DNA from: Mytilus californianus | Taxonomy: Eukaryota | DNA: 64,000 bases | Assembly (NCBI RefSeq): GCF_021869535.1 | Contig: NW_026262637.1 | Span: 8,990,001-9,054,000 of the forward strand | Reading direction: 5' to 3' | In this document: piece by piece, positions 1-62,110 of the stretch | Layout of the letters: the number at the start of each line of letters is the position of its first letter | Numbering within the stretch: the first letter of the stretch is position 1 | Position numbers and translations under genes: made by a program | The notes under the pieces: generated by a model | Seen by the model: the letters and a program-made list of their open reading frames with translations, nothing else | Told to the model about the DNA's origin: nothing | The model's database searches: none

Positions 1-139
1 ACCGCATGGCCTTGAACAATGAGCAAAACTCATACCACATAGAAAGCTATAAAAGGCATTGGAACTGTCAAATCATTAAACTGTCTTTAAAACATTTTGC
101 TGTTATTATTGTTTTAAACCAGATGCTTTCCATCTAGTT

Positions 140-3067
140 TTAAATCTTTTTAGAAGGCAGGTCAGAAAATTTAATGCTTTTTCTCAGTGGATCATATCCG
201 TCGTCGCTACGGGTATTAGTATTTGCACCACAGACCAATAGTATATCAACCACATAAACTGATGGAAATTTCATCAGAGAAACATCTCCTACTTTGGTTA
301 TATTGGGATCTACTGCTAAGTGTAATAATGTCTGATTATTTATTCCCCTTGGATCAATCTGAACCAAGTACGCAACTTGTTCTATAAAGTCTACACGCTC
401 AGTCACGCTACCACCTATAAACTGAAAAAGTCGAATTAAATGTAGTGTTAACTTCATTAGGCACTGCAAATGTCCTTGTTCAATAATGCTTAATGGACGT
501 ATGGTGAGAACACTTTTACCTCCCTCAATCTGACGAACAATCGTCTTGAAGACATCCAATACATCGGTCATCTGCACCTGAAATGATAAAAAGGCTAATC
601 AATAAAAACCATAAAAATGAAAGACTACCCTTTTAAATGATTTTCAGTTTGTTTTATTGTTGTATAGTTACACAACTTAATCAAGTCAGGGAATATGTTG
701 AGCACTCACAAACATGTCTAACCGAGCCACGTTCTTTGTATACCTGTCCCAGACAAGAGCCTGTTATACAGTTTTCCCTGTTGGTAATGTTGTTGTTTTT
801 CATTAAATATTGTAACCACCAATCTGTTCGTTAGTTTTCTCTTGTGATTGATTCGCATCTAGCATCTTAAAAGAGAGGCAGAAGAAACCAAAGGTATATT
901 CAGACTCATGAGTCGAAAATCAACTGACAACTAGCAAAAAACTAAAAACGACTAAAACACAAAAAAGAGTCTACAAAAGAGTCTACAAAAGACAACATAT
1001 AATACTTAAGACTAAGCAACACAAACCCCACAAAAGCAGGGGTGATCTCAGGTGCTCATTAAAGGTAAGCAGATTCTGCTCCACATGTGGCACCTGTCGT
1101 GTTGCAGATGTAAGTACAAACTTGGTGATGAGTCTAATTCGGCAGGTCACATTCAAGGAAATGAGCACGGGATTGTGGACTACAATTGGAACATATCCGT
1201 CGTCAAACAGATATTCAATAAAGGTCGTGATAGCGTCTCGAAGGAACGACTTCAACTTCACTGCTGGGAATCCTTGGTTTAATAGCTTTAAAAGCAACCC
1301 TCTATCAAGGAAATCATGAAAGGAAATGCAAGCCTTGGAATATCGTATCAATTGGAAGATATATACTCCATATGCAAGCGCTGCTGGACTTTTGCTACAT
1401 AGAATTAGAAAGTATCCAATTGTATTGTTGGAATCATCTCATTTGTCGTTAAGTTTTCTTCTCAATGGATCCTCATTGTCAATTTCATGTCTTTAACAGC
1501 TTAGTATACGGTATACGTTTTGTTCATTGTTGATAGCCTGGAGCGAAAGACATATTAGCGAAAAAATCTAAACATTTTTAAAACAGTGTTTTAACTGAAG
1601 CAAGTACATTTGTCATTTCGGGGCCTTTTATAGCTGACTATGCGATATGGGTTTTACTCATTGTTGAAAGCTGTACGATGACCTATAGTTGTTAATTTTT
1701 ATGTCATTTGTTTCTTGTTGAAGAGTTGTCTCATTGGCAATCATACCACATCAAATTTTTATATTTTAACTGAAGCAATAAATGTATTGGTTTATATTTC
1801 TAAAACTGTATCCATTCATAAAGATTACCCGTTCTTTCGTATTCTTGTTACCCCATTTTATCTCCATTTCACAAATCATGTCAACTAAACTTATTGCACT
1901 TTGGATTGTATCACCATTTAAAGGATCGTCTTGTTTGAATCTTAGCGTGTAAGCGTATTTCCATAGTTTCATACATTGCTGATAACAGCCATTAGCTAGA
2001 TACATAGCACCGCGAAAAATGATCTTTCCGATTGTTACAGGATGATTTTCACCATAAATCCGGGAATATTTCAGTAGTGCTTGCATGTAAAAGTCATTTG
2101 GATCAGTAAGTTGACGTAAAGTTTCGACTGACATAACTTCAACTGCACAATTCAAGTAACATACCGGTGTCACGTTCCTTACAGTATTGGTCATATTATT
2201 AGTCACAACAAAACGCAGCTTTAATGCTGTTTCCCACATTAAAACACACCGTGTGACGTCATCGTCTACCAAACAACAACCCAATAAATCAAATGCATAG
2301 CATTTGTCTTCGACTGAAAATGTATAAGTATCTAGAAAGTATTTTATAATAGTTGAACTGCCTCTCAGAGCAGCGATTTTAAGGGGTGTTTCTTGATAGT
2401 TTGTTTTGGCGGTCATTGATCCTCCATTCCGACATAATAACTTTACGGTTTCTAACTTATTAGCGTGTGCAGCATGATGTAAGGCCGTATATCCATCCAT
2501 ACTTGAAGCGTTAACACTTGCTCCTTTAGAAATAAGATATGCACATAGTTCCGTGTTAGCTACGGCTGCCATTAAACACGAATATCCCTGTATTGTAGTC
2601 TTCCTGATGTTTGCACCATGTTCTACGAGATATTCAACCATAGGCATATTTAGCGACCCACATGCCGATATTAATGGCGTCGACTGCACACTGGTCAGTC
2701 CATTAACGTCTGCTCCATGTTCAGTCAAAAGTTTGATTATATAAAGCCCATTTTCAAGACCTGTCGCACACCATAAAGACGGAGCTTCAATTCCATTTTC
2801 CCAGGTGGGTGCTTTAAAGAACCCATTTTGTTCAACATCGGGGTCACATTCGTCCAACAAATATTTCACAATATCTGCGTTACCCTTTATACATGCAAAA
2901 CATAATGCAGGCCTTCCATCGATTTTGAAAGTCACTATTGATTCCCGCTGACTTATTGTCAACATACATAATGTACTGATGATTTTGTTAGGTTTATCTT
3001 CATCAATACATGTGTGTATAATCCTGGCATACTTTTCTATTTCAGAATTACTGAGTTCAGCTGACAT
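140..3067 (-). CDS. fem-1: FEM-1-like ankyrin repeat protein, copy 1; exons 3067-1829 and 577-140 (558 aa)
   Basis: Ankyrin repeats (GADVN..STPLISAC, GASVN..GYTALHHAA, QETPLKIAA), TPR-like middle (FRGAMYLANGCYQQCMKLWKYA) and C-terminal QTLLHLA..LLVCGAN match FEM-1 architecture. Donor CGG|GTAATC at 1829/1828 and acceptor TTTCAG|GTG at 578/577 are both phase 0, so the ORF-track ends are intron read-through. Confidence 0.88.
983..1490 (-). mobile_element. Degraded Penelope-like element 3' fragment (RT thumb region) in fem-1 copy 1 intron
   Basis: Broken translation AYGVYIFQLIRYSKACISFHDFLDRGLL-KLLNQGF parallels YGVYISQLVRFARVC..KLLHQGF in the element at 59.5-59.9 kb; stops and frameshifts present. 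Confidence 0.7.
1617..1755 (-). repeat. Copy of the most abundant short interspersed repeat in the window (GATGTGGTATGATTGCCAATGAGACAACT... family)
   Basis: Same motif recurs at about 4930-5020, 16575-16650, 23610-23850, 24540-24740, 27820-27960, 49245-49435, 53360-53490 and 54660-54900 in both orientations. Confidence 0.8.
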
Positions 3068-3663
3068 ATTTAATATATATACCTTAGAAACGGTAGTTAA
3101 AACAGCTGATCAACACTTAACGATATTTACATCCCTGTCTGTAAAGTACCTTTAAATCGGTTCGGTAATCATAAAATCTAATTTTACCATTACCATTGAA
3201 GATGATGAGAAGTGTTTTTTTGAAATCATGCGTCGAACAAATAATTCAATATAATAGACTACATATCCTTATATCCTTTGGAAATTTTCAGTTTCGTTTC
3301 AGTTGATCCATATTGACAATTTAAATCTATCTACCTGTTCTAAATATTAATATAATTGACCTTGCCCGACGTTATTTATGTCAAATAAACTAAAGTAAAA
3401 TAGGTTATTAAAGTTAGAATATTTACACCTTTAATGAATTTGTGATGGAAAACCAACATATATTTCATTAAACGAACGACCATCGACCAAATCTCATGGC
3501 AGATTTTGTCACCCCTTGGTGGCAATAGTTTGTTTGTATTAGAACTTCTGAAAAACCGGTAAATATTGATGATAAAATACCAAATTGGCCTGCATGTTTT
3601 CAGAATGGCCGCACAGGAACTTGTTATTATTATTCTGATAATACAAAAAAGCCAACCGACATA

Positions 3664-4095: not shown

Positions 4096-4240
4096 GTACC
4101 AGGACTATAATGTAATACGCCAGACGCGCGTTTCGTCTACGTAAGACTCATCAGTGACGCTCAGATCAAAATAGTTACAAAGCCAATTAAGTACAAAAGT
4201 GAAGAGCATTGAGGACCCAAAATTCCAAAAAGTTGTGCCA
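4096..4240 (+). repeat. Interspersed repeat fragment; inverted related copy at about 15480-15600
   Basis: TACCAGG...CCAGACGCGCGTTTCGTCTAC...GACTCATCAGTGACGCTCAGATCAAAATAG has a reverse-complement relative at 15.5 kb. Confidence 0.6.
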
Positions 4241-6678
4241 ATACTAACCGTGTATTGAAATAAGCCCCGTCTACTTACCCCCATATGAAATATACACGGT
4301 CTCCTCACGGTTGCATGTAACCAATCATAGTCCTAGAGGTGTATAAGAGGTAAGAAAATCATTTTTATTTCCAATAAAGGATCCATTATGGGCAAAATCA
4401 GTACAGTGCTTAGTATATTACACATTTACATTACAGAAAATATAAATGAAAAACAGCTCAAACATGGGATATAATATAATAATGTGAGTTAATATAATCC
4501 ATATAAACTATAATGTTCAGTGTTCGTTGTCTATTAACCAGAAGCAGCATCATATATCCATTATGAAATAAGCTTGTATGAGTTAAATCCAGCTCGTGAT
4601 TGATGCATATCTACAAATAATTATAGAAGTCACCAAGGTAATGTGTACCTTGGAGTTTATTTGGATTACCCAACCGGCATACAGTTATTTAAAGATTCGC
4701 CGCATTATATATATATAGACTTAAGTCATCCGCCTTGTTTATATTACATCTCTGCTTGTGGATATTAATTTTCCTTGTTTATGAAATATATCTGGGAATG
4801 AAGATGAAAACCGGATAACAGGATTATCTGAAGTATTAAACATTACCATACACCATCAACAACGACTCATCCTAAAATAATATTGGTACACATACAAACA
4901 AACAATAGCGAACAACACAAATAAAAATAAGAAGATGTGGTATGATTGCCAATGAGACAACTCTCCACAAGAGACCAAATGACATAGAAGTTAACAACTA
5001 TAGGTCACCGTACGGCCTGACTTGTTAAAGGTACAGTTAAGATGAGATGAGATTCATCCAGATGATCAACGATGTAGTTATACCTATTGGACATAATAAA
5101 TCTATGAGAATAACAGTTTTCTGACGATATAAAAATATATTGTTGAATGCTGTTGGTTTAATTATTTTACTGGACATTCTCTTGTTTCTGCTTTCAGCTT
5201 TCTTCTCAATATAGATTTGTTTTTATCGCATCATGAAATACGTAATTAAAGATCTTTTATAATCTTTTCTAGTATTATGCTCTACTTTTAAATATAATTC
5301 AATGTTAATGTAATTGGCTGATTATAGTTATCAATTTTTTCATCTTAATGCCAAAGATTTGATTGGCAATAAAAGGCATTGAATGTTTGCAACAACTGAA
5401 GATCTCTTAGGTTTTTGTCTCGCCTACCGGAAAGTCGCAGTATGCGAGACGTATGTATTACTATCCGGCGGCGGCGTAAACTATTTGTATAAAGCTTTAT
5501 ATTTCAGAAGGAAGAAGACCTGGATGCTTCATATGTTGTATGCCGATTTCTTATGTTACGAAATTTCCGTCTGTCATATGTCCATTGTCATTGACCTTAT
5601 TTTCATGGTTCAGTGACTGCTTGAAAAACATTTTTTTTTTTGTCATGTGAATTTGTCACTTATTATAAGGAATAGGATAATTATATTTGGTATATGGGTT
5701 CCTTGCAACGTCTACATGTCCGCCAGACAGGGTTCATCTGACCTCGACCTCATTTCATAGATCAGTGATCAAGGTTAAAGTTACATGATTATGTCCGTTT
5801 CTCAAATGTTATAAGCAGTAGGTCAACTATATCTGTCCGTATGAAGTCCGATTTTTATGATTCTTTGTATCGTGTGTCTTGTCATTGTTAATAATTGCTG
5901 GGAGTATTTTTACAAACACATCGTAATTAGTAACATCTTGTTATTTTTTATGCACAAATGAAGAAATAAGAAAACATAAGATATTTATCATTTTATGTCC
6001 AAAATCATTTATAAAAATAAACACAATTGTGGGGAGCAGCGAAAAAGTTTTTATATAAAAGATTTTCAAAGTTTAGGCTTGTGTTGAAAATTAAGTACTT
6101 CATATTGTCCATTTGACTTCTATATATTTGCAGAAAAAAATTCTTAAAAATTCATTTTTTCAAATTATGTTTTCCTTGATGTTTGTTAATATATGATATA
6201 TACGAACTCTGACTATTAATTTTATAATTTTTGGTCTATAATTAAAAAAGTTTCCCATTAGGTCTCTATGTTAATTTTATTTTTTGAAGTGTAGATTACC
6301 TGATGGAGTAAGTATATATAGTGTAACAGCCATCCAATAAAAACAAAACCAACATACATGTGCTTTGAATGTTTGTTTATTTATACCTTTTGACTTTGTA
6401 TATTTAAATATAAAGAAGACCTTAACTGACCAGCAAACAAAATTAGATTTCATGTCATGTGATTGTTTTAAAAGTTCTATATATGATAGGAATCTCCATT
6501 GTCCATTTTCTATTTAGAAAATATTAGAAATAGTATAAACTAGTAAAACAGTACTTTATAGGCAACGGAATACCTTCATATGTTATGTTATTAGACATGA
6601 GTTTTGACAGGATTTGTTCACTTTTTATGTTTAAGTTTAGTACAAGGAAAAAAAAAATTTCTCACATCAAATTTATTT

Positions 6679-7260
6679 TTATGGCCATTCATAATCTTCA
6701 GTCTCATCTCCATCAGTATAATCATCTTTTTCACTCTCAGATTCAGAATCAGATTGAATGTGTATAACAACTTTTTGAATTTCCTCCTGGATTGCATCAT
6801 TTTGCCAATAGCTCGGTTCAATAATATTTTTTAACATGATCACAAGAGTTTAACCACTTAGCACTATCCTATCAATTTGTTCAAATCCTATTTGGAAGAG
6901 TGATTTATCATCATTAAGTTTAAATGTTGAATTTTCTTGACCAATAAATCCCTTCAAATAACCCCATACAAGTTCAATAGGGTTTAAATCACAATGGTAA
7001 AGGGGAAGTCTAAGTACTTCATGTCCTTTCTTTTTGAGGAATTCATCTACCTTATATACAGGTGCAATTTTCTTAGATTTAATCATTTGATATAACTTTG
7101 GTTTGGTAAATTGCTGTCAAATTCGATACCATTCTTATTTAAAAACAACCTTCATATCGTCTTTTCTCGAGTAAGAGGTTGGAGATTTCGTACTCTCAAC
7201 ACGGACACTGTAGTATGATGCATTGTCCATGAATACAATACTTTTTGGGGGCATTGATCA
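6679..7260 (-). pseudogene. IS630-Tc1-mariner (DDE_3) transposase C-terminal relic
   Basis: Minus-strand translation gives IVFMDNASYYS, then HEVLRLPLYHCDLNPIELVWGYLK, then after frameshifts HVKK/IIEPSYWQND and an acidic tail ending YEWP-stop at 6679; internal stops present. Confidence 0.8.
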
Positions 7261-8107
7261 TGTGAATGTCGAACATTCCAGGAAATCGGGGTTCTTAACT
7301 TACTAAGATTAATAAGTATTCTAATGTATATAATGATAAATTAACTAATGCATCTATAAAATTAACCCCTCTCCTTAAATTACACTTATTTTAAAACTTT
7401 AAATCATAACACAAAATTTACGAAACATTATAAAAGACAATGAAAATTCTATTTCGATATTAAGAAACATATAACATCTTTCCTTTTGATTATAATCCAA
7501 AATTAATAAGATCAATACAAACACTATATCCTTTAATCATGTCAGGTTATGATTTTCTGATCACACTGGACACACGCACGATTTTTCTAAAAGGGGGAAA
7601 TATATGTCAGGTAGATTGTATAAGGATGGAAAAGTAAAGGTCAAATCCGGAACAAAAAACAATTTAGATGATTTGCATTTGTATATGTTTGTATAAAAGT
7701 ATGTAATTAACTAACAATTATAAAGTAAAAATTATCTTTTAGACACCCTGTTCTTAAAGATATCAATATATCAGGGTACCTTGTTTGTGAAAGCTGTAGC
7801 AATAACGTAATTGTAACAGCTATAGACTTATAAATCAATTATCATTGTCAAAAAAAAAAAGAATAATAAGAATTATGGCATGTGAAATCTACAGATTGAT
7901 ATATAAGCTTTGATTGCATTTTCGTTTATCTATACAGAATTGATCTACAGATATACTAACCAACAAATGACGTGGATGTAAGTAGTAAGGTGACCTAAAT
8001 TTACGCGAATTTGAAATTTGACAGTTATTACGTTTGCGCGAACAAATGGTGTTACATTTGTGCAAATTTACCTGATACATTTTGTCTTTCCTGGAAAGGA
8101 ACATGCT

Positions 8108-8850
8108 AATTAAGAAGGGATATAGTTAGGATACTGTTGTCAGGTCATTAAAGATTGCATATTTTGGCGTTAATATTGATTCACTTATAGGGTCTTTGCA
8201 TCCGAACTAAACACATTTATTTAAAAACCAGTTGTTGGCATGACACGGGTTATGTTCTTCTCATATATGTTATGATGGTATGATACTAAACCCCTAACGG
8301 GAAGGATTGTGCCTGATATTCATATGATGAAGACATAATCTTTCAATCAGTTTAATTGAAGTCTGGAGCTGGCATGTCAGTTAACTGCTAGTAGTCTGTT
8401 GTTATTTATGTATTATTGTCATTTTGTTTATTTTCTTTGGTTACATCTTCTGACATCAGACTCGGACTTCTCTTGAACTGAATTTTAATGTGCGTATTGT
8501 TATGCGTTTACTTTTCTACATTGGCTAGAGGTATAGGGGGAGGGTTGAGATCTCATAAACATGTTTAACCCCGCCGCATTTTTGCGCCTGTCCCAAGTCA
8601 GGAGCCTCTAGCCTTTGTTAGTCTTGTATTATTTTTAATTTTAGTTTCTTGTGTACAATTTGGAGTTAAGTACGGCGTTCATTATCACTGAACTAGTATA
8701 TATATTTGTTTAGGGGCCAGATGAAGGAAGCCTCCGGGTGCGGGAATTTCTCGCTGCATTGAAGACCTGTTGGTGACCTTCTGCTGTTGTGTGTTCTATG
8801 GTCGGGTTGTTGTCTCTTTGACACATTCCCCATTTCCATTCTCAATTTTA
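8108..8850 (+). mobile_element. 5'-truncated 3' end of the Naiad-type Penelope-like element (last ORF codons plus 3' UTR)
   Basis: Near-identical to the reverse complement of 58856-59455; encodes LIKKGYS*DTVVRSLKIAYFGVNIDSLIGSLHPN-stop (TAA at 8208-8210), followed by the UTR. Confidence 0.9.
8261..8330 (+). promoter_or_regulatory. Candidate type II SECIS element (selenocysteine insertion sequence) in retroelement 3' UTR
   Basis: ATGA at 8272-8275; 11-bp helix II GGTATGATACT/AGGATTGTGCC; unpaired AAA at 8288-8290; apical mini-helix CCC-TAAC-GGG; TGAT at 8314-8317 completing the non-Watson-Crick quartet; helix I TCATATATG/CATATGATGA. Folded by eye. Confidence 0.8.
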
Positions 8851-10437
8851 AGTATAAACACTACATTATGGACACATTACACAGCATTTTACCTCAACAG
8901 GAATCAGATATAAGTCAGTCCTGTGATAAGACTCTGGGTCATTGTTGGTACCTTTTGTGCGTTTATTTGGAACAAGCGTCAACATTCTAGGCGGTATTGC
9001 ATACTAACTTGTGACGTCATTTTCAACTAAGTAGTTGGCAAATAGTTTGTGGCTTTCATACTCAGTAGCATTTTACATTAAATCATCTACAAAACTGACT
9101 TTAAAGAAGATCTGACAATCTCAAATTCAAGCCGTGTTTAAACCACTTTTCTATTTCAGTTGACGAATTTTTTATTATTTCTTTTAGAATATTTAATTAA
9201 TTCGCGCAAATATAGTAAACTTTCAACATGTAAATTTCGTGCAAGCATAATGCGTTTTGTCGCGCAAACGTAGAAAATTGTTCGAGCATATGTAAAAGGA
9301 ATGCACGCAAACATAACGCGCTATAGCAGTTATTATAGAAAATGTCACCATATGGCCCTTAACCATGTTAACAATGATGTAGATGTGTGCACTGATGATT
9401 CCCAAGTAATAAAGTTTGTTACTTTTGCATTTTGAGAGTTTGTATCAGTTAGTCTGTTGTTATTTATAGGTTCAGGTATATTCTGGTGTATATTTCACTT
9501 ATTATCTGTATCGATAACGTCAGATATGGCGCAACTGTGTCATGGTTGCTATTTCTTTACCGTTGGGTCCACATTCTAAGCGTGTTCCCGAAAGTGTACA
9601 GTTATGATTTCTTAACTGAAAGAATCGACATGCCCAGATTTGTTTAGTCACGATTATTAGAATAAGCATTTTGAGTCGAGGACTCCTATATTTTTCGTCT
9701 GCGATTGATTTTATGTTTTTATTCCTGCTAAGAAAATTTACTTACGGTAAATTATGAATAAATACCATAGCAAGGTCAAGTTCGTCAGTCTTTGCTTTGA
9801 TTACGTTTTGGCCTACAGCAAGGATCCCAGGGGCTCCTATATGTAAGAAGCAGCGCATTTAGCTGTATGTCTCGTATTTCTCTGATCTATTTTCATTGTA
9901 GAATTAAGGACATTCCCGTTTAATTCGTACAAAAGTACAAGAATATTATTTTAGTAGGTCTACCCCTTTTGTAAATCATATAGTTTTTAGAACACTGTAC
10001 ATATATGTATCAGCTGTTCCACATGTTTAATGAACGTATCATTTTTTACTATGGATTAATTATTCGCGCTACCAATCCAGAGAGAGATCAGACATCAGAA
10101 TTGACGGCCATATTTATTTGTCTCTCGTATAGTTACAAGTTTTATGAGTTTATTCGTATTCTGTGCTTTGGGGATAGAAAAGACTAGCAAGAAGCAGAAA
10201 TTAATGAGTAAACCCCATACTCCATAGAAAGCTGTAAAAGGCCTCAACATATCAAAATGAGAAGCAATTCAAATGAGAAAATAAGTGTCCTATTCTAACA
10301 TTCATTTACAAGATTGTATCATATAAAATAACAAAAAAATAATAAACAAATCAACAAAAATAAATTAAAAAATATTGAAATCATTTAACTGTTTTTCAAA
10401 CGTTTGACTGTAATATTCTGAAACAGATGTTTTCCAT

Positions 10438-13400
10438 CTAGTTTAAAACCTTTTCAGAAGGCAGGTCAGAAAATTTAATGCTTTTTATGAGTGGATCATA
10501 TCCGTCGTTGCTACGGGTATTAGTATTTGCACCACAGACCAAAAGTATATCTACCACATAAACTGATGGAAATTTCATCAGAGAAACATCTCCTACTTTA
10601 GATATATCGGGATCTACTGCTAAGTGTAGTAATGTCTGATTATTTATTCCTCTGGGATCAAGTTGAACCAAGTACGCAACTTGTTCTATGAAGTCTACAC
10701 GCTCATTCACGCTACCACCTATAAACTGGAAAAGTCGAATTAAATGCAGTGTTAACTTCATTAAGCACTGCAAATGTCTTTGTTCAATAATGCTTAACGG
10801 GTGTATCGTGAGAACACTTTTACCGCATTCAATCTGACGAACAATCAACTTGAAGACATCCAAAACATCGGTCATCTGCACCTGAAATAATAAATAGGCT
10901 AATCAATATAAAAAAAATTAAAAAGACTACCCTATTTAAATGTTTTTCCCTGTTTGGTTTGTTGTTCTTTCGTTACACACTTTCTCAGGTTAGGGACCAG
11001 TTTGAGCACTCACACACATGTTTAACTGAACCGCCGCACACGTTCTTTGTATGCCTGTCCCTTGCTTGATGTTTGCCTATTTTCTGTCATTGTTATTTTT
11101 TATTTATTATTTAAGGCCTTAATCTATTCGTTAATTTTCTCTTTTTATTTTGTCGCATCTGACATTTCACAATCCTTAACGAAAGGCGGAACATACCAAA
11201 GGGATTTTCAAACTCATAAGTCGAAAACAAACTAAAAACGACTAAAAGACAAACAACAATTCACAAAACAAAACATATAAAACTAGAGACTGACCAACAC
11301 AAACCCCATGAAACCAGGGGTGATCTCGTATTATCAGGAAGAATAAGTAGATCCTGCTCCACATATGGCACCCGTCGTGTAGTTTGATTTGATTTTTTTT
11401 TTTTGCACTTGCTAGTACAAACTTGTTTATAAGTCTAATTCGGTAGGGCACCTTCAAGGAAAAAAGCACATGATTGTTGTCTACAATTGGAACATATCTG
11501 GCGTCATCTGTGAAATAGATATTCCTTAACGGTCAAACAATCGGTGATAGTGTCCGTAAAATTCTCGAAGGAATAACTTCACTGCTGGGAATCTTTGCTT
11601 TAAACGCTTTCTTGTAAGAAGAAACCCTCAATCAAGGAAATCATGATAGGAATGCACTGGAATATCGTAATAATTATGCAGCTGAAATCTTGTCTTTTGA
11701 CGGAAATTGTTGATCTCAACCGACACTCATTGTCGATTTCACGTTTTAATTTGGCTACCCATAAACCAGGTTCAACCCACCATTTTTTTTTCTTAAAATA
11801 TCATGTACTAAGCCAGAAATATGGCAGTTGTTTTCAAATAGTCCGTTTCTATGTATGATGGCGTTTGTTTTTGTTGCAGCTCAGTGTTTCTGTTGTTTCG
11901 TTGTTTCCCTCTTATAGTTGGTGTGTTTACCTCGGATTTGGTTTGTGACCCGGATTTGTTTTCGCTTAATCGATTTATGACTATTGAACAGCAGTATACT
12001 ACTGTTGCATTTATTTAACAGCAAAATATACGACATGGGTTTTGTTCATAATGATTGTTGATAGCCGCGAGCAAAAGACATATTAGCGAAAACATCTAAA
12101 CATTTTAGCGCTGACATTAAAAACCATTTTTTGAATAGCTTTTTACTCAAGCAATAATTGTATTCGTCTGCATTTTTTAAACTGTATTTGTTTTAATAAA
12201 TTACCTGTTCTTTTGTTTTCTTGTTAATCCATTTGGTTTCTAATTTACAAATTATATTAACTAAACTTATCGCGCTTTGGATAGTGTCATCATTTAAAGG
12301 ATCGTCTTGTTTGAACCTAAGTGTGTAAGCGTATTTCCATAGTTCCACACACCGCTGATAACAGCCATTATCTCCATACAGAGCCCCACGGTAAATGATA
12401 TTTCCGATTGATACTGGATGATTTTCACCATAAATCCGGGAATATTTCAGTAGTGCTTGCATGTAAAGATCATTTGGTTCAGTTAGTACACGTAAAGATT
12501 CTACTGACGTAATTTCAACTGCATACTGAAAGTAAGATACAGGTGTCACCTTTTTTACGGTATTGGTCATGGTATTTTCAGCTTCAAAACGCAACCTTAA
12601 TGCTGTTTCCCACATTAAAACACACCGTGTGACGTCATCGTCTACTAAAAAACAACCCAATAAATCAAATGCATCGCATTTTTCTTCGAGTGGAAATTCA
12701 TAAGTATCTAGAAAATATTTCATAACCAACGAACTGCCTCTAAGAGCAGCGATTGTAAGGGGTGTTTCTTGATAGTTTGTTTTAGCGGTCATTGATCCTC
12801 CATTCCGACATAATAACTTAACGGTTTCTAATTTATGATCATGTGCAGCATGATGTAGGGCCGTATATCCATTCATACTTGAAGCGTTAACACTTGCTCC
12901 TTTAGAAATAAGATATGCACATAGTTCCGTGCTAGCTACGGCTGCCATTAAACCCGAATATCCTTTTTCTGTAGTCTTCCTGATGTTTGCACCATGCTCT
13001 ACGAGAAATTCGACTATAGGAATATTTAGCAATATACACGCCGATATCAATGGCGTCGAATCCGAATTGGTAGGTCCATTTACGTCTGCACCATATTCAG
13101 TCAGAAGTTTGATTATATCAAGCCCATTATCAAGACCAGTAGCACACCATAAAGGTGGAGCTTCAATATCGTTTTTCAAATTTCGGATTTTAAATAACCC
13201 TTTTTGTTCAACGTCAGGGTCACATTCGTCCAACAAATATTTCATAATATCTGCGTTACCCTTTAAGCATGCAAAATATAATGCAGGCCTTCCATCGATT
13301 TTGAAAGTCACTATTGATTTCCGCTGACTTATTGTCAACATACATAATGTACTGATGATTTTGTTAGGTTTATCTTCATCGATACATGTGTGTATAATCC

Positions 13401-13443
13401 TGGCAATCTTTTCTATTTCAGAAATACTCAGTTCAGCTGACAT
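10438..13443 (-). CDS. fem-1: FEM-1-like ankyrin repeat protein, copy 2; exons 13443-12205 and 10881-10438 (560 aa)
   Basis: Colinear with copy 1 (about 79 substitutions in 413 exon-1 residues by manual count); donor CAG|GTAATT at 12205/12204, acceptor TTTCAG|GTG at 10882/10881, phase 0. Confidence 0.88.
11225..11675 (-). mobile_element. Degraded Penelope-like 3' fragment in fem-1 copy 2 intron, at the same position as in copy 1
   Basis: Shares CTGCTCCACAT(G/A)TGGCACC, CAATTGGAACATATC and AAGGAAATCATGA blocks with 983-1490. Confidence 0.6.
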
Positions 13444-14530
13444 ATTTAAGCACTATTAACATATATCTTTAGAAACGGTAGTTAAATAGCTATTCAAAAC
13501 TAAGTGATATGTATGTTCCTGTATGTAAAATACCTTTTAACCGTTAATGAACCAATAATCCAAAAATATAATATCAACATTTGAAATTATGAAAAGTGTT
13601 TATGAAATCATGCGTCGAACACATAATGCAGGATATAAGACAATATATCCTTTGGGAATTTTCAGTTCCGTGTCAGCTGATCTATATAGAATTTTTTAAT
13701 TTATCTACCTGTGCTAGATATTAAAATAAATGACCTTGTCCGATGTTATATATTGTAAAAGTAATAATAGTTTATCAAAGTTAGAACATTAATATCTTGT
13801 TCAATTGAATGTATTTGTGATGGACAACCAAAATAGATTTCATAAATCGAACGACAATCGACCAAATATTATGTAAGATTGTGTCAATCCCTACGTGACA
13901 GTTGTAAGTTTGTTCATGCTTAAACTTCACAAAAACCGATGTAAACAGATACAATAAGACCCAATTGAACTGTATGTTCTATTAGAAGGGCGCATAGAAA
14001 CTTGTTACTATTATCCTGATAGGATAATTAATATGCATATGTAATTAGATCTTTGAATATAGTTTACATTGGCACTAATATCGATTTTGTCATCAGCAAA
14101 TTAAAACATAACTAAATTTGTATTTTTTTTTCAAGTGGGGTGTATAAAGACACACCCACGTTCGTTTAGATCTATAAAGAGGTTAAAATCCTAACTATCC
14201 TACTGTCTATCGATACATTTATTTTTGGCATTGCACTAGTCATTTCTTCTTTGACTGTCCATGACGTTAAAATACTAAATCCCTGGGATGTGTTTTAGTA
14301 GATTTTAGTCTCTGATGCATGATTTTTTATTATTAACTGTTTTGGCTTTTAACTAGCTGTCAGTAACTGCGAGTACTCTCAAATCGTACTTTCTTGTTTA
14401 TTTGACCTGTTGATACTAATTGTATTGCTTTTTTGTTATTTAATGTTATTCAGGTTTATATCTGGTCTATATACCAGCTTTGATAAGTGTTTGGTATAAC
14501 TATAAATTTTCACTTCGTACTATGAACATT

Positions 14531-14961
14531 AAAATTATTTATTTTGTAAAAATATTTCCTTTCTCTATTGGTACTGTACACGTATACCTAACAACAAAAT
14601 TATTTTCATTTACCTGTGTTTAAAGTTATTGCAAATGGATGGTATTTTTGTTCGAGCATATTGTTTTTCTTTAATTGTTTAACATTTCTTACCGATATAA
14701 CATGTTACTTTTATTATTCTTCCCTTAGTTCATTTATTTTGTATTCAAAATTATTTATTTTGTAAAAATATTTCCTTTCTCTATTGGTACTGCACACGTA
14801 TACCTAACAACAAAATTATTTTCATTTACCTGTGTTTAAAGTTATTGCAAATGGATGGTATTTTTGTTCGAGCATATTGTTTTTCTTTAATTGTTTAACA
14901 TTTCTTACCGATATAACTTGTTACTTTTATTATTCTTCCCTTAGTTTATTTATTTTGTATT
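14531..14961. repeat. Local tandem duplication, 2 x 216 bp
   Basis: AAAATTATTTATTTTGTAAAAATATTTCC... starts at 14531 and again at 14747, nearly identical. Confidence 0.9.
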
Positions 14962-15442
14962 TACATTGTGTCATAGGTCAAATTTATTTGTTCAGTGTAT
15001 GTTCAATGGTGTTAATATGTCCTTTGATTGAGTTAAGCTATTTCAGGTGATATTTTATAGTGTGTCTTTCTATGTTGTGATGTTACACTATTCTTTCAGA
15101 AAAAGGGTGAAGGTTTGGTACCATTAAAACGTTTAAACCCGCTGCATTTGTTTGCACCTGTCCTAAGTCAGGAATCTGATGTTCAGTAGTTGTCGTTTGT
15201 TGATGTGGTTCACAAGTGTTTCTCGTTTCTCGTTTTTTTTTTATATAGATTAGACCGTTGGTTTTCCCGTTTGAATGGTTTTACACTAGTAATTTTTTGG
15301 TGCCCTTTATAGCTTACTGTTCGGTATGAGCCAAGGCTCCGTGTTGAAGACCGTACTGTGACCTATAATGGTTTACTTTTATAAATTTTGACTTGGATGG
15401 AGAGTTGTCTCATTGGCACTCATACCACATCTTCTTATATCT
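14897..15442 (+). repeat. Interspersed repeat of about 545 bp; inverted near-identical copy at 26831-27373, partial copy at 30357-30470
   Basis: Direct reverse-complement match over the whole length. Confidence 0.85.
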
Positions 15443-17189
15443 ATATATGATGTTCAATGGCACAAAATATAGTTTTATCAATGCTCTTCAACTTTCTACT
15501 TGTTTGGCGTTGGAACTATTTTGATTTGAGCGTCACTTATGAGTCATGTAGATGAAACGCTCGTCTGGTGTATCAAATTATTAGCCTGGTACATTTGAAA
15601 ACTATTGAAGCCTTTACCGGAATACAATTATTACTTTAAATATTTGCCACATTATAATTATTCCGTCTGAAATTTTTGCCAATCGTTGTATTTATATCTC
15701 CCTTTGCAGATATTGAGCTCCTTTGTGAGATATGTTTATGATATGATACGCAAAAATAGTTAACCGCATTTATCTGAAGTATTGGACAGTAAAATAGATC
15801 ATCAACCTCGACTCCTCTTTTAATAAAATAGTCGTACACATAAACACAATCAACAGCAAATAAAACATGGCGAATTAGTTTCATTTATAGTAAAAATAAA
15901 AAAATATGAACTTCATTTCAGTTGACATACAATGTAGCTAAAGCCACTAAACGAAGATAGAAATGTACGGTCCTTAAAGTCTTACGATTTCAAAAATATT
16001 GTTAAAGTCGAAAGGTTTTTTTTACCAGACTATTTAGTGTTTCCATTTGCAGCTTTCTTCTCCCGTGAAATACCTTATTACAGATCCTGTATAATCTTCA
16101 CTCGTATGATGCTCTACTTTTTTTTAATATAGTTCAACATGTTCAATGATGATGTAATTGTTAGAAACAATTATTATTATGCTGTATGTTCTAAAAGATT
16201 TGTATTGCAATAAAAGGAATTAAATGTGTGTAACAACTAAAGAACTCTTGGATTTTTGTTCCATTCATGCTGAAATATAAAAGTGTACAACTTTCATATG
16301 ATCATACGTGCTCAAATTGCAGAGGAAGATAACAACCGATTCAATCAATGTTTAAACTGATGCAGCAAAATGTTTTGATGAGTAGACTTATCCCATAAGT
16401 GTGATAATAAAACTTTCGAAATTATGACATGTCGATTTGTTATTGTGGATCGAGTAGTCGAGATAATTAGAAATCAAACCGGTAAATGTTTTGGTTTTAC
16501 TTGTCAATGAGCGAACCACCCACGACAGGTGGGCACCCGGTCTTCTTTTTCACTATTAACAGACATTCATGCATATAATGGTTTACTTTTATAATTGTGA
16601 CTTGGATAGAGAGTTGTCTCATTGGCACTCATACCACATCTTCCTATATCTATATGTTGTTAAAATCGACACCAGATAGGAAGACGAAACATCTGCCTCT
16701 CTATCAATAGTAAGTTTACCTTCTGTTGATAAGCCCAGTATCACCATGAAGAAAAACACGAAGGTCTGTACAACGGGGTAAGTGTTACAATATGTTCTTT
16801 ACTTTCTTTAATGTATTGTTGAAAGGTGTTTTTAAATATTATTTTAGATTTTATTTTTTAACTTTGTCAAATATTTATTGTCTACATGTTTCTTTATTAA
16901 ACACTATTCTGGTATTGCACAGCAAAATCTATGTAACAAGATTCTGTTACGTGGTTTGAACAGTGTTATTATAGTTTTTGAATCTCTAAAGTTGTTTAAA
17001 GTTGTTGTTAATCATTACATTTATGCACTGATATTTAAATGTATGGTGTATAAAATGTTCCCCCAATATCTTCACTTTCTTTTCAAATAAATTCAATCCT
17101 GTTTTATAACATTGTTTCTTTTTATATGTCTATATAATGAAGAACCATTAGCAAAACGTTTGTTTATGTTGTAGACGTTAGTAGTATCA

Positions 17190-20955: not shown

Positions 20956-23438
20956 CTGAATTTAAAATAATACTCGCATCAGTTGCATGCTTGCAGACTA
21001 TCTATGTTAACACGCTATATATATATAAATATGAAGTGATATTGAATTTATTGCAATTAACCTTGATTTGGATTATTTTCTGGATGTAAGCAATTTTACA
21101 TGATGGCATCAACCTAGCAGGAGAATTTATTTCAGTTATAACAAAATATTTTATTAGTGGTAAAAAGAAAGGAAAAAGTATTCTTATTCGATGCAAGTCA
21201 CATGTTTTGGTTTCTGTTAACTTATTTTTAATGTAAAAGCAGTATAAATATACCACTGAAAGTTTATCATCTGAGTAAGGATAGGTAGAATGTACTGTTT
21301 TGAAAATTGTTTTGACCACAAGATACCCAATGGATACGATCAAGTTGTTTAATCAGAAGTCTTTTTCCATGTTAATGAAAAGATTCGATTACCAACGGAA
21401 TTGAACTGTGGTATTTATATCTAGTCATCAGATCCCGCGATTAAGAGCCTGACATATGGTATATACACCTGTCTATTGTCGATGACTATGTTGATCTCTG
21501 ATCATATGTCTTTTAGTTATTTGTGTCGTTGCTTTGGTGTCTCATAGACGTATACCCCTAATCTTTTATTTCATACAATAATATGACAAAGCAATAGTTA
21601 TTGACAGATAGGTCCAGCACAATAAACCATGATCGTTCTTTTTCATTGCATATAGGCAGGGATATTATCTCACTGCCTCTGCTGTTTACTAGAAATTAGA
21701 CAAATATAAAGAAATAAACGTTAGCATGTACATGTACTTACCAAATTCACGAATTAAAGAATTTGCCTTTTAATTGATTTGAACAGTTTCCGATGAGAGT
21801 AGTCACTTAATACTATGTTTTCATGCATGCCATATTCCAGAAAAACCCAGAACATTTTGCCCTTACAGTTGCATTGTATGGTTTAGTTATGAACAAAGGA
21901 TGCTATTTTAGGACAGGAATAAGTTGCATTAAACATCGTTGAATTATTCAGATATGTTTATACACAGGTTTGATTAGAATCGCACTGGTACAATAAGAAG
22001 TTAGTCCCAGGAGTGCAACTTGTGCTAATAAAATCAATTTTATTACATATTTCCATGCTACAAAAAATATTATATTGTTCACTTATTTGAGGTCGATTTC
22101 TTGAATGTACGTTCGTGAATATTTCATATTACTAATGCATTACGTTTGATTAATTTCTAAGCAATCTATCTGGTTTAATAATTATCTAAATTAAATTATA
22201 CCATTAAAAAAAATATAGAAAAATATGTTGTCATAATTAAGAAATTTTTAAAAGGAAATAATATAATTTTGTTATGCAGCCATAGGGATGGACATTACTG
22301 CTATGTATTCCTTAGTATGCGACCGCTCAGAAGGAGGGAGTATACTAGTTCACCGCTGTCCGTGTGTCTGTCCAATGACATTTTTGTCGAATTGTTTTTA
22401 GGAACTGCAAATCAGAACTTCTTGAAATTCTGGGCAGGCTTCGTGTGAGCATATATATATATATATACAAGTCTAAATTGAAAACAACGTTCAAACCTAT
22501 GATTGCGTTGGATAAAAACCGCAATTTTTATACGTGTATATATATATATATATATATACTATACCGTGTGGTTAACTTTCATATTCATTACTCACCAACT
22601 TCCTGTTAATCTTGTAACACCATGTCAATTTGACCCTGTATGAGATGTTCGTCGCATTGTCTCATGAACTACAAATAAGAGCTTCCTGAAATTTGATATC
22701 AAGCTTCACCTGAGCATGTTCTGTAGAGACGTTTTTGATTTTTAAAAATGAACGTTGTATATACTGGTTAATTATTAATTCAAGGATTTCGTAACTTTCG
22801 TTTTGAAATTTTGCTGAACCTGTAGAATCGTATTATTCTATTTTTTTCACAGTATTTTTGTTTATAAAGCCCGTAAATTTAGATACGATCCCAGCCTCGG
22901 AAAGTTCGTTAGTCCTTTGAATAATCTTATTTTTAAAGGATCTCAATTTAAATATACGTATAAGCCTTAGTATCTTTGATTACTGTTTTGTGCACTAACA
23001 CTACACAATTATGTTCGTCAAACAAAAACATAACTATAAAATATGTTTTAATTGCCACAGGTTTTGACCAGTATATACTTAATATGTTTATCCCTGGTGT
23101 AAGTGTTTTTGTACGTCAAGGAAATATTACTTTCAATGAAACTCGAGACATCACTGCATATATATATTCGATTTGTTTTTGACAAACGATACAAAATTAA
23201 TTGTCTGCTTAACATAATTTAAATGTAATTTTGTGTGAAACAGACAAAATTAAATTCATAAATTTTAAGGATGCATGAAACAGATTTGAAAAACAATGGT
23301 AACAGATTCAACAATCCAAGTATTAAAAGATTACTCCCTTTAATATAAATAAAGAGCCCCAATTTTATAGTTGAATTTTAACTTGAAATCCAATTGAATC
23401 CCTACGGAAGCCGATAAGGGTCATTCAAAAAAATATTT

Positions 23439-23586
23439 ATGTCGCAATTACGACATAGCATGTCGTAATAACGACATAACTATGTCGTAATTTCGACATA
23501 GCATGTCATAATAACGACATCACTATGTCGTAATTACGACATCGCTATGTCGTAATAACGACATCCTTATGTCGTTATAACGACAT
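23439..23586. repeat. Array of seven 18-bp palindromes (ATGTCGTAATTACGACAT consensus) separated by 3-4 bp
   Basis: Units start at 23439, 23460, 23482, 23503, 23525, 23547 and 23569. Confidence 0.9.
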
Positions 23587-26500
23587 CGCTATATATATAT
23601 ATATATAAAACAGTATGTATTATGATTGCCAAGAGACTATATAACACAGAAATTAACAACTATAGGTCATCATAATGCCTTCAAAATGAGAAAAGCCCCC
23701 ACATAGTCAGCTATAAAAGGCTCCGAAATGACAAATGTTTAACAATTTAATTCGAACGAGAAAACTAACGGCTTTATTAATGTACAAAAAATGAAAACAA
23801 CTACAAATATGTTACACGGCAACAAACGACAACCACCGAATTACAGGCTGCTGATCGCTATGTCATAATTACGACAACATTAGCGTTGTCACTTTTTGAG
23901 GCGATAGAAAATTAAAAATGGTCGTCAGTGAGGGCAAAGTTTGAAGCGTAAAGATATTCATCTTTTTTTGGAGAATAATGAACACTAAATGCAATCAAGC
24001 TTAATTAAAGTTATTTACTTGCACATACTAGAACTTTATTTTATAATCAAGTCAAATGAGACCCAGTTGCACAGGGGAGCGATTCGGGCTTCTTGGAGCC
24101 TCTAGTTATGTTTGGCATGTACATATTCGTGTAAAATATGACTGCATTTCCATTGCAGATTCTGAAGAAGATGAATTTTAAGCTTTTCCAAATAAAGACT
24201 GTTAAACTTTGGACTCCTAGTCCTCAGACCCATGGACCTCTGTACCTTCATTTGTACACAATGGCCTACTGATGCTTGATGCAAATTATAACTGCATTGC
24301 TACTGTTGGTTCTTTATGAGATTCTTACAGCGTCCTCCCCATTGAAGCCTGTATTAAACGTTAGACCCCAAGTTCTTTAAACCAATGTTCCCGAGGACAA
24401 CTATTTCTACAAACTTAGGGGAGGGTTAGGTTCCCGCTAACATGTTTAACCCCGCCACATTCTGTATGTATGTGCCTGTCCCAAGTCAGGAGCCTGTAAT
24501 TCAGTAGTTGTTGCTTGTTGATGTGTTACATATTTGTTTTTCGTTCATTTTTTGTACATAAATTAGGCCGTTAGTTTTCTCGTTTGAACTGTTTTACATT
24601 TCTTATTTCGGAGCCTTTTATAGCTGATTATGTGGCATGGGCTTTGCTCATTGTTGAAGGCTGTACGGTGACCTATACTTGTTAATTTCTGTGGCATTTG
24701 GTTTCTTGTGGCAATCATACCACATCTTCTTTTTTTATATTTAATCCTCATCATATAAGGATCATCCATTCTCTAAGATTTATCCAATATGGCCTGTAGT
24801 TCTTAATGAGAAGATTTTCAAAGCTTTTTCCATTGGAGCCTATGTTAAACTTTAGACCCCTAATAATCGAGCCTAATGGGTCCCCTGATCTTCACCTATC
24901 ACCTAAGGAACTTGTGTCTCGTACTCGAAGTGGTATGCGAGCGATTGCTATCGTTTGTTGTCCGTCGTCGTCTGTCGTAAGCGTGTTTTAAAAATCTCCT
25001 TTGAAACTACTGTACAAAATTCTTTAAAAGTTAGTTTGATTTTTCCTTGTTAAATGTTTCCTTCACAAAAGGCGTGCTTTGATTTTTGAATCCTTAAAAA
25101 CACAGCCGCTGTTATTAACTTGAAAATATAGGACATAATGGTCACACATTAGTTTTTTGATAATGTCTCGAATATCGTTACATTTATCTCAAATCTGTTG
25201 AGGGTTCATCATGACAAAATGGACCTATGCCGAAAATTTCAGAAAGATCAGTTTGACCCATATCTAAGTTGTGGCCTCTAAAACATTTTTTGGGGATAGC
25301 TACATGTATTGTCATCACTTGAAGTCCGTCGATTTTGACTGGCAACCAACAGCATGGACACTGTTACTAAATAAAGGCAACAGTAATATGCCGGTGTTCA
25401 AAGGTCATAAATCGATTGAGAGAAAACAAATCCGGGTTACAAACTAAAACCGAGGGAAACATATCAACTGTAAGAGGAAAATAAACGAACAACAGGAACA
25501 CTAAAGTGAACAAAAATAAACCCTTAACATACATAGAAAGAACTATTTGATAACAACTGTCATATTCCTGAATTGGTACAGGCCATTTTAAGAACAAATG
25601 GTGGGTTGAACTTGGTTTAATGGCTAGCCAAACCTCCCGCTTTATGACAATGTTAAAAATGGCGCTGAAATGATAACACTACGTGACAGAAATACAGATC
25701 AAACACAAGCAAGACCATATATCACAGAGAAACGCACAAACATATAATATACTACAGTGTAGTAATAGTCGCAAAACATGTAAACTGCAGAACAACAGCG
25801 AACATATTTCATCAACGACAAACACCACAGGATATAAAAAACAGTTAAGCGCTTACGTAACTCACATGCAATCTCGAACTGTATGCAGTTATTTCCACAA
25901 TACTATACAAAAAGACCACATAGCGAAATAGCAGAATTTTACCTCTCCTGCGACGAACGTCATAAATAGCGAAACTTTAGGAATTGATTTTGCGGCGACG
26001 GCTGCTAAACTTTTATCAACATTTTGTGATTTTTGTAATCTTTAATAAAAATTTAACGGTAAATACAGACGACGACGGACGACAAGCGATTGCAATAGCA
26101 CACATAATCCTTCTGGTACTTAACACATCTTCTTGATGTGATCTACATTAATGCCAAATATAAATATAGAGGCTCCAACAAGCCTGAATCATTCACCATT
26201 TCAATGGGTCCCATTAGACTTGATTATGAAATAAAGTTATATTATGTGCAGACATATAGCGTAACTAACTTTAATATTAATTAAGCTTGATTAAAATCAG
26301 TGTTTATCATTCTCAAAAATGAATATGTTTCGATAGGGTTTTGATACAAACTTTGCCCTCACTGGCGGCCATTTTTAACTTCGGATCAGCTCAAAACGTA
26401 AAAACTCTTTTTAAGGACCTGGATACAAGTCAAAATCATTGAATTAAGTGTTTAGGAGATCATTAAATGTGTGGAACAGTCGGATCAATTGTTTAATTAT

Positions 26501-30360: not shown

Positions 30361-32567
30361 GCATTTGTTTGCACCTGTCCTAAGTCAGGAATCTGATGTT
30401 CAGTAGTTGTAGTTTGTGGATGTGGTTCATAAGTGTTTCTCGTTTCTCGTTTTTTATATAGATAAGACCGTTTGTGAGAAACTGCAAATCAGAACTTCTT
30501 GAAATTTGGTGACAATTTCATGTGGGCATGCTATACCGTGAGGTGCACTTTCACATTCATCACTCACCAACTTCCTGTTTGTCGCATACTTGTATATTTT
30601 AACACCATGACCCTGTTTAAAATTTTTGTCGCATTTTCTCAGGAACTACAAATTCATGAAATTAATTCGATATCAAGCTTCATTTATGTTAGTAGAGACA
30701 TTATAGATTCAAATGAACGTTGTTACAGGTTATGAAGTCAGGGAATTCGTTACTTCAAATTAATTAAAACGTTTACTAAATTTTTTTATAGATACAAAGA
30801 TTTGGTTTTGAAATTTGGCTGCACGTGTAGATTGAATCTTACTACAAACGGGATGGTAAATCCTATTTTCACAGTACTGTTGTTTATAAAGCCCGTACAT
30901 TTAGATACTATCCACGAACAAGAGTTACAAAAGCTTCGTCCACATGGATTGACCATGGTTTATTGTAATGTGCCAGAATTTGTTTTCTTATTTCAATTCC
31001 AAAATATTTAATCAAAGCAACAGCAAGTTAATGACAATCGCATCCATCGCCCATCAACTTCATGTTTACCGAAAAGATAAGTCAGCAGTAACTCGATTAC
31101 ATTTCAACTTGTTTGATCTTTATTTGTCTTTCCAATATTAAAATATAAAAAAGGTGAATTTTAATTCAGAAAAATACAATGTATGTACCATTTGTCTCTT
31201 TTTAAATGTAAAATCTCAAAATTTTAATAAGTACCCTTATCAAAGATAAGAGGGGAATTAAATGTCAAATGAGGCACTATATTACATATTTGTTAATAAA
31301 TCTGAGAGATGATACAGATTTCTGTACGCACGATACGCTCGAGACCAAAAGTTTGCATATGAAAGCCGCAAAAAAAGTTTAAGAGTTTTCACATGTAAAA
31401 GCCTTAATGGAACTAAATAACTTGCCATCTTCGTGCAAATGCATGGCAAAAAGTAAAATAGCAAAAATACCGACCTATGAAAATTCAAAACGGAAATCCT
31501 TTATCAAATGGCAAAATCAAAAGCTCAAACACATAAAAATGGCAGAAATCATCGTCATACATAATCAAGCCAAACATCATTTTAAAAAAGAAGGGTCAAT
31601 GTACGATCATGTACTCGTTTTAAAGCTAATGATTAAAATCAGTCGAAAAATGCATCTTTTCGCGATATTTCACAGTTTGACGTTGCGAAAAAAAACAATT
31701 TACGTTAGCGACGGCATTACCTCCCCTGTAAGTTGTAACTGTATCGGGAATAAGTAAAATAACAAAAATACCGAACTCCAAGGAAAATTTATAAAGGGAC
31801 AGTCCCTTATCAAATGGCAAAATCAAAAGCTCAAACACATCAAATGAATGGAAAACAACTGTCATATTCCTTACTTGGTACAGGCATTTTCTCGTGTAGA
31901 AATGGTGGATTAAACCTGGTTTTAGTAGCTAACTAAACCTCTCACTTGTATGACAGTCGCATGGACAGTGAGTGGCAGTTATCTTGTTTGTTGTCGCATT
32001 GCTGATCATCATCCTGAATATGCATCAAATGTTTACTACATGGCGTCAAACAATTCTAGGTAACCAGTATAGCTGTAATTTAGAAATAGTCCTCTTCCTT
32101 CTGGTGGTATGACCCATACTGTAAGTGTATCAGTGTTTGTACTTTTGGCATATTTGAGTTGTATGTATCAATAAAAAAAATAAAGTTTTTGATTAAAATT
32201 ATCTTCTGAAGGGTATTGTGGTGATAGCATGTGTATAAGGTTTTTGAAAGTTTTTTTTTCGATGTTTCAGAACAGAAATTGGCATTTTAGATGTATATTT
32301 ATGGTATATTTTGATAAGAAGTGGTATGTATTAAAGAAAGACAATTTCTCAAAAAAAATTTATCACGAATTTATTTTGTTGAGTTGAGTAAAATTTATAA
32401 ATTAATGTTCATAGTTGATATGTAAAATGACAGCCAGTTAAAATGGATCACTTAGGGGAAGCGTATTTTGAAGATACTGGGTCAGTTAATAAACATTAAT
32501 TTTTAATAACACATTATATAAATCATCCGAAGCGGTTTATGGATTAACCTTAATAAGGAACGCTCAA

Positions 32568-61800: not shown

Positions 61801-62110
61801 GAGAGGGTAGACTGTCTGTAATTTTTTAATCCAATTTAATTCAATTATTTTCCGTGATCGTACAAACTTTGAATGAGATTCACCAGGCTGCTTATTTACT
61901 ACTTCTAAAGGTTGAACTGCTAAATATTTAATAGGATGATTGTGCTTCTTAAGGTGTTGATAAATGATACTTTTGAATTTATTGGGTCTTTTAAAACGAT
62001 ACAGATGTTCTTGAGTGCGTTTAGATAAATATCGTCCAGTTTCACCTACGTACTGAATACTACTTGTGCAAGAGACTGAAGGTACCATTGCATTCAATAT
62101 ATGAGTATTG
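58856..62110 (-). mobile_element. Naiad-type Penelope-like retroelement (N-terminal GIY-YIG, CxC linker, C-terminal RT), damaged copy with two in-frame TGA codons
   Basis: QYVGETGR..KRTQEH, ELNWIKKLQTVYPLGLN (EN); SCNC..HVITGDL..KGPKYR (linker); PADKAANN, YWLPKLHKTP, FDFSTLYT, GIPMGTNCAPLIADLFLY, FRYLDDIL (RT). ORFs 61045-62097, 60802-61029 and 59947-60666 share one frame and are joined through TGA 61047-61045 and TGA 60804-60802. There is a 10-nt (AT)5 frameshift at 59958-59949, TAA at 59487, and the 3' UTR runs to 58856. Confidence 0.92.

Follow-up and report, generated by a model that had tools for sequence, protein, structure and literature searches.

A probable SECIS element in a truncated Naiad retroelement of Mytilus californianus and its relation to selenoprotein-encoding Naiads

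Naiads are Penelope-like elements (PLEs) whose diagnostic features, according to the available text of Craig et al. (2021; PMC8557442), are a GIY-YIG domain, a KR-rich block, the motifs CxC, GxKF/Y and DKA, and a reverse transcriptase (RT). The accessible parts of the same paper describe four Naiad families that encode selenoproteins and carry grade A SECIS elements, namely Naiad_Scon and Naiad_Mmer in clams and Naiad_Sdum and Naiad_Smim in spiders. A UGA occupies the position eight residues after DKA (DKA+8) in 4/4 of these families, and UGAs also replace the Cys that precedes GIY-YIG and the first Cys of CCHH; CxC is absent from the selenocysteine (Sec) sites given in the text available. Two Mytilus families, Naiad_Mcor and Naiad_Mgal, bear no selenoprotein flag in the accessible metadata of that work, in which it is also proposed that 5′-truncated transposable elements (TEs) could deliver SECIS elements to host genes. 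Selenoprotein Naiads with SECIS elements and the portable-SECIS hypothesis are thus both already published. A literature search, in which subscription journals were mostly uncovered, found no other paper on Sec-encoding Naiads; the accessible part of a preprint (10.64898/2026.07.22.740005) mentions Naiads, not SECIS elements.

The stretch of DNA analysed here, referred to as the window, comprises 64,000 nucleotides of M. californianus contig NW_026262637.1 and holds two broken copies of one Naiad family. The shorter copy lies on the forward strand at 8109-8850, is 5′-truncated near 8109, and consists of the C-terminal tail of the RT ORF (8109-8210, with an internal TAG at 8127-8129 and a terminal TAA at 8208-8210), a SECIS element and the remaining 3′ UTR. 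The longer copy, on the minus strand at 58856-62061, is 5′-truncated inside the GIY-YIG domain near 62061 and reads, in order, GIY-YIG core, KR-rich block, CxC, GxKY, DKA and RT. It has been damaged by nonsense codons, by a frameshift near 59950-59962 and by a 146-nt deletion, with one base shared at the junction, that took the ORF end together with the 5′ half of the SECIS. What is left of the latter is its 3′ half at 59365-59420 (minus strand); the AUGA has been deleted along with the 5′ arm of helix II. The two copies are 97.5% identical over 570 nt (8281-8850 versus 59424-58856 of the minus strand). Moreover, the ORF tail of about 33 codons is 61-64% identical to the C-terminus of proteins P0003, P0004 and P0007, which in turn are 75-82% identical to the long ORF (62061-59487); because both match the same three proteins, tail and long ORF can be placed in one family, as had been supposed in the preliminary description of this DNA. 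An intact SECIS and a UGA never stand together on either copy of the window, and a selenoprotein cannot be made by either of them. The copy at 8109-8850 is a dead 5′-truncated insertion with no UGA-bearing ORF in cis of its SECIS. The earlier argument that the SECIS lends separate support to the TGA codons of the family consequently stands at the level of the family, but not in cis, as the two features lie on different broken copies and only one TGA qualifies.

The assignment to Naiads relies on the protein encoded by the longer copy (P0001), in which the GIY-YIG core YVG..R..E..H..E..N lies N-terminal to the RT and all four of the remaining diagnostic motifs (KR-rich block, CxC, GxKF/Y, DKA) are present. 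The homologs listed for P0001 carry PF01541 and PF00078; a Pfam profile search of P0001 itself and of its relative P0125 gave no match. In a structural model of the close homolog P0004 (pLDDT 68.6), the best 18 Foldseek matches are TERT structures, with E-values down to 6.7e-8 and TM scores of 0.26-0.42. Confidence falls below a pLDDT of 50 at residues 98-114, around DKA, so the role of a DKA-proximal Sec is not readable from this model. Like the selenoprotein Naiads in the accessible part of PMC8557442, the window family combines an N-terminal GIY-YIG followed by RT, a UGA at DKA+8 and a SECIS after the ORF. Its domain order and motifs are also those of Cys-type Naiads, for example Naiad_Mcor and Naiad_Mgal; identity to Cys-type relatives is about 29-40%, and the two of these whose 3′ ends are available lack both TGA and SECIS. 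Six motifs of the window were looked for in the consensus sequences of PMC8557442 and none was found (0/6), in a text where matches may be masked by line wraps and by sequence runs that were cut. No hammerhead match was found in either copy, nor any tandem Naiad arrangement within the window.

The SECIS of the shorter copy spans 8261-8330 on the forward strand and begins about 50 nt downstream of the ORF stop. Direct reading of the sequence places the AUGA core at 8272-8275 and reveals a quartet formed by U8273·U8317, G8274·A8316, A8275·G8315 and U8276·U8314. Helix II (8277-8287/8303-8313) is paired at 10 of 11 positions, with one A·G mismatch and with G·U wobbles in 3 of the 10 pairs, and an unpaired AAA (8288-8290) follows 12 nt past the AUGA. 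Helix I (8261-8269/8321-8330, one base bulged) closes the internal loop, and an apical CCC/GGG mini-stem of 3 bp is predicted above the AAA bulge in the minimum free energy fold. Helices, quartet, AAA spacing and mini-stem are all where the preliminary description had put them, though it made no mention of the wobbles, and its spacing of about 50 nt between stop and hairpin agrees with a TAA at 8208-8210 and a hairpin from 8261; of the ORF that it set before the hairpin, the stop is retained, but the frame itself amounts to no more than some 33 C-terminal codons interrupted by the TAG at 8127-8129. In eukaryotic SECIS elements, helix II places an unpaired AA(R) at a distance of 11-13 nt from the core, in line with the 12 nt read here, and the features of the hairpin are those by which type 2 SECIS elements are defined in the accessible part of PMC2761289. 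They also resemble the Rfam family RF00031 (SECIS_1) in helix I, internal loop, tandem G·A quartet, helix II and an AAA bulge below the mini-stem. Unlike the usual type 2 SECIS, this one is carried by a mobile element and not by a host gene, and scores 31.7 bits. Two differences separate it from the published Naiads, as far as the accessible text of PMC8557442 describes them. Its distance from the stop is about 50 nt versus 1-21 nt, and it has an apical mini-stem, whereas the four published SECIS elements are called type I. The latter difference is soft, since by eye the two clam elements printed there could also form a mini-stem of 3-4 bp with nearly the same spacing.

Regarding the scores, the 81-nt hairpin region folds with z=-3.03, and 3 of 200 shuffles are equally stable. 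Rfam SECIS_1 matches 8262-8326 with 31.7 bits, which corresponds to E=4.4e-4 in the 1.1 kb searched and to E=0.025 in a search of the full 64 kb; at the gathering threshold of 35 bits no SECIS_1 match is obtained over the window. The check with Infernal that had been proposed therefore yields a match that falls short of the gathering score. For the same reason, the earlier designation as a textbook type II SECIS is too generous in its adjective, although the type II geometry, that is, the apical mini-stem, is borne out. A custom SECIS descriptor that demands at least 9 helix II pairs, run on both strands of the 64 kb, has 8261-8330 as its sole match, against a background per shuffled window (100 shuffles) of 0.76 matches at this setting and 0.06 when at least 10 pairs are demanded; as relaxed on helix I, this descriptor still misses a second SECIS at 14251 (see below). 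A custom covariance model matches the window at 8250, 59365 and 14239 (E=0.06), and gave no further SECIS in the window and none in the six additional Naiad loci L005-L010. Judged by its sequence and predicted fold, the hairpin at 8261-8330 is very probably a genuine eukaryotic SECIS.

Two TGAs of the longer copy had been put forward as in-frame codons of interest, and they differ in standing. Residues were counted in 120 of 302 near-length homologs and 120 of 421 shorter ones, among the matches listed. The TGA at 61045-61047 (minus strand) falls at residue 363 of P0001, in a column that is Ala or Ser in 108/120 near-length and 83/120 shorter homologs listed and Cys in 0/240, and the 97% identical protein P0123 has Ser there. 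As a Sec codon it is ruled out, and it represents a private nonsense change of this copy. The TGA at 60802-60804 (minus strand), at residue 444, replaces the conserved Cys eight residues after DKA and is upheld as a family-wide Sec candidate. Among the 120 near-length homologs listed, this residue is Cys in 89, Trp in 9 and another residue in 2, and the remaining 20 proteins end at 443; other internal end positions never occur more than once each. Half of the shorter homologs listed (50/120) also end at 443, including P0123, which has 54 members and terminates exactly before residue 444. Such protein ends reveal a stop, not the identity of its codon. The N-terminal region of Sec sites is missing from the window copy; in P0125, 95% identical to the window protein, Trp takes the place of three Cys within the endonuclease region. 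Trp at a Cys column was taken, by inference, as a TGA translated under code 4, a reading whose only direct support is that P0073 and P0005 have Trp where the DNA of the loci L001-L004 (see below) has TGA. From the family-wide stop at DKA+8 and the three Trp of P0125, the window family probably has four Sec codons, three in the zinc-finger region of the endonuclease and one after DKA. One of these probable sites, the second Cys of the CX4CxxC finger, is extra with respect to most published Naiads, being reported in the accessible part of PMC8557442 only for one spider family.

To place these sites in a phylogenetic frame, a FastTree tree was built from 211 sequences, the window protein and 210 of 245 candidates, with at least 180 residues required within positions 26-443. 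Five close relatives were retained by name, and the two columns under test were masked. A single clade (FastTree support 0.998) unites 116 sequences: 92 show a stop or TGA at CxC or at the DKA+8 Cys, 11 show Trp, 1 keeps Cys in the two columns and 12 are uninformative. The 95 sequences outside it show 0 stops, 1 Trp, 90 with Cys at both positions and 4 others. The recoding fingerprint is thus present in 103/116 clade sequences, and all 92 stop/TGA sequences lie inside the clade. With IQ-TREE, run on 23 of 127 eligible sequences, the clade obtains a UFBoot value of 74 and its two halves 98 and 100; at 74, a single origin of Sec use in Naiads is not firm. Among proteins that reach the YVG motif, 22/25 in the clade start just past the first CCHH Cys versus 2/47 outside, and 20 of the 120 shorter homologs listed end directly before the first CxC Cys. 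The clade also includes P0142 and P0166, which by eye match the proteins given for Mmer and Scon in the accessible part of PMC8557442. The Sec sites appear to differ between sister families: in P0154, CxC bears the Trp whereas DKA+8 is Cys, the reverse of the window family, and the closest sister families of the latter (P0003, P0004 and P0007, at 75-79% identity) have Cys at DKA+8.

A scan of genome contigs yielded ten loci, L001-L010. Four of them (L001-L004), arranged in tandem on two contigs, belong to a single Naiad family that is 44% identical to P0001. Five TGAs stand in frame in these copies: four fall on conserved Cys columns, DKA+8 among them, and the fifth on a column that is not Cys. 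SECIS_1 matches of 42.1-42.8 bits, above the 35-bit cut-off, lie at the end of their ORFs, and a UGA-bearing ORF with a 3′ SECIS in cis is therefore seen directly in these copies. In all four, the AUGA of the SECIS itself provides an in-frame UGA at the ORF end, which resembles the overlap described for Naiad_Mmer in the accessible part of PMC8557442. The two contigs (CBDDTI010000448.1 and CBDDTI010000653.1), with their near-identical full-length Naiad arrays, belong to a genome labelled as bacterial; given that Naiads are eukaryotic, they probably represent contamination by host DNA. The Cys-type loci L005 and L009, followed for about 1.1 and 0.8 kb past the stop, have no TGA and no SECIS; L006, L007, L008 and L010, being incomplete or broken, are uninformative in this respect. 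Some repeats are common to the window and to L005, L006 and L010.

The SECIS of the window and those of L001-L004 can be aligned without gaps, with no variation in AUGA, AAA and UGAU. When the window is compared with L001-L003, 10 of 19 pairs are altered on both sides (5/11 in helix II, 4/5 in helix I and 1/3 in the mini-stem), and 94.7% of cells pair; all three mini-stem pairs are kept in every distinct SECIS row. None of 500 shuffles reaches 10/19, and slid registers give 1-4 such pairs. As the set consists of three distinct sequences from two families and the structure was drawn from those same sequences, the covariation is supportive and does not amount to a significance test.

A second SECIS is present in the window at 14251-14312 (forward strand; SECIS_1 31.0 bits), where a truncated Naiad copy belongs to another family within this clade. 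This copy (14038-15443, forward strand) is 5′-truncated and has an internal 215-nt tandem duplication; its ORF tail, which occupies 14041-14115 with the stop codon at 14113, shares 71% identity with P0278, and the SECIS lies about 135 nt beyond the stop. Taken alone, 14251-14312 folds poorly (z=-0.91). The SECIS_1 matches in the 64 kb are these two, 8262-8326 and 14251-14312, 6 kb apart, each shortly after an ORF tail of a recoding-clade Naiad. The 3′ end of the second family occurs again at 27373-26831 (minus strand). An 18-nt motif is found in nine copies (0.01 expected) at 1721, 4948, 15400, 16609, 26857, 27838, 49392, 53384 and 54673, within a family of 100-330 nt repeats; as one of these repeats closes the second Naiad copy, they may be Naiad 3′ termini. 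Decayed RT pieces of at least three further Naiad families lie at 1136-1486 (minus), 30661-30951 (plus) and 63685-63968 (minus), and the SECIS_1 search found none behind them. Fragments of Cys-type Naiads also occur within the window.

Other features of the window include a type I hammerhead ribozyme match at 4117-4160 (minus strand; 33.3 bits, cut-off 34), whose repeat recurs at 15478-15606; the match probably belongs to a retrozyme or to the pLTR of a canonical Penelope-like element. Paralogous ankyrin-repeat genes, which we take to be fem-1-like, form a tandem pair at 70-3640 and 10378-14021 (both minus strand; 77-82% DNA identity). An ORF of 198 residues at 40790-41386 (minus) is related to DUF4732/C19orf81 (PF15876), and one at 56850-57677 (plus) encodes an integrase core (PF24764, E=3e-70). 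The segment at about 6650-7300 (minus) presumably is a decayed DDE transposase fragment of Tc1/mariner type, judging by eye. Tandem repeats comprise 58-nt units (32568-33207), units of about 130-160 nt (55440-56525) and a short self-complementary array (23437-23596), the last of which yields spurious miRNA-family matches. No tRNA genes were found in the window.

Taken together, the hairpin 3′ of the stop, the family-wide stop at DKA+8 and the co-occurrence of TGA and SECIS in relatives argue that the hairpin is the SECIS of a selenoprotein-encoding family of Naiads, Penelope-like elements with an N-terminal GIY-YIG, in which UGAs at conserved Cys positions would be read as Sec. We assign this reading a probability of roughly 0.88. 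The decoding of UGA as Sec by an SBP2/eEFSec-type machinery is an established pathway. In a full-length active copy, the SECIS would lie within the 3′ UTR of the element mRNA and would recruit the host SECIS-binding protein and the Sec elongation factor, so that in-frame UGAs at the conserved Cys positions of the zinc finger and before the RT would be decoded as Sec and a single endonuclease-RT protein could be completed. Given that the UGAs precede the RT core, RT would not be made without recoding, and transposition may thus be dependent on selenium. Sec insertion itself, and the three N-terminal sites taken from the Trp residues of P0125, we infer from sequence comparison.

The alternative that survives best, albeit as a quite improbable one, is that the hairpin is kept for another job, such as a kink-turn for RT binding or 3′ priming, or the stabilisation of the mRNA, and that the UGAs are sites of non-Sec readthrough or programmed stops yielding the endonuclease only. 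Such a role would suit a hairpin located in the 3′ region that PLEs copy first, as well as the AUGA that gives an in-frame UGA at the ORF end of L004, and the accessible part of PMC8557442 reports no Sec insertion assay for any Naiad. It does not account, however, for UGAs that are almost confined to conserved Cys columns, nor for AUGA, AAA, GA and their spacing staying invariant while the stems covary, and Cys-type families transpose by the same route without the hairpin.

It is very improbable that a host gene now uses the copy at 8109-8850 as its own SECIS, as might be suggested by an intact hairpin behind a broken ORF tail and by a location between the two ankyrin-repeat genes. Both neighbours lie on the minus strand, opposite to the copy, so its SECIS cannot serve them, and their long ORFs contain no Sec-type UGA; in addition, the copy is young (97.5% identical to its sibling), and its intact hairpin needs no selection. 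The portable SECIS envisaged in the preliminary description is therefore not seen to have been donated here, and as a hypothesis it is already found in the accessible part of PMC8557442. Finally, it is hardly credible that the hairpin resembles a SECIS by chance, as AT-rich repeat DNA might allow, and that the TGAs reflect ordinary decay: the Rfam score is sub-threshold, the looser descriptor gives 0.76 matches per shuffled window and the ORF copy does hold ordinary nonsense changes, one TGA among them, but this reading is already largely refuted by the SECIS at the same position in L001-L004, the family-wide stop at 443 and the covariation in 10/19 pairs, and both SECIS_1 matches in the 64 kb directly follow ORF tails of recoding-clade Naiads.

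With the SECIS of a Sec-encoding Naiad as the favoured reading, what is new here is modest: a further family and host group, a larger recoding clade, turnover of Sec sites, covariation, and a second SECIS-bearing family 6 kb away. On the practical side, truncated copies of this kind will produce false SECIS calls in selenoproteome searches, and annotation turns Naiad Sec ORFs into fragments or, where an assembly is contaminated, into bacterial proteins. A broader picture can be drawn, rather improbable as a whole, in which a large and old Naiad clade needs Sec recoding, shifts Sec among Cys sites and scatters intact SECIS elements densely in bivalve genomes, where some sense landings in host 3′ UTRs would have made new selenoproteins or UGA read-through, with selenium gating transposition. 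Thanks to truncated copies that keep their SECIS, a screen of genomes could put the proposed donation of SECIS elements by TEs to the test, and the covariation adds evidence for selection on the SECIS structure. For the Naiads themselves, the selenoprotein-encoding transposons would extend from four published families to an apparently large clade, in which 103 of 116 sequences bear the recoding fingerprint.
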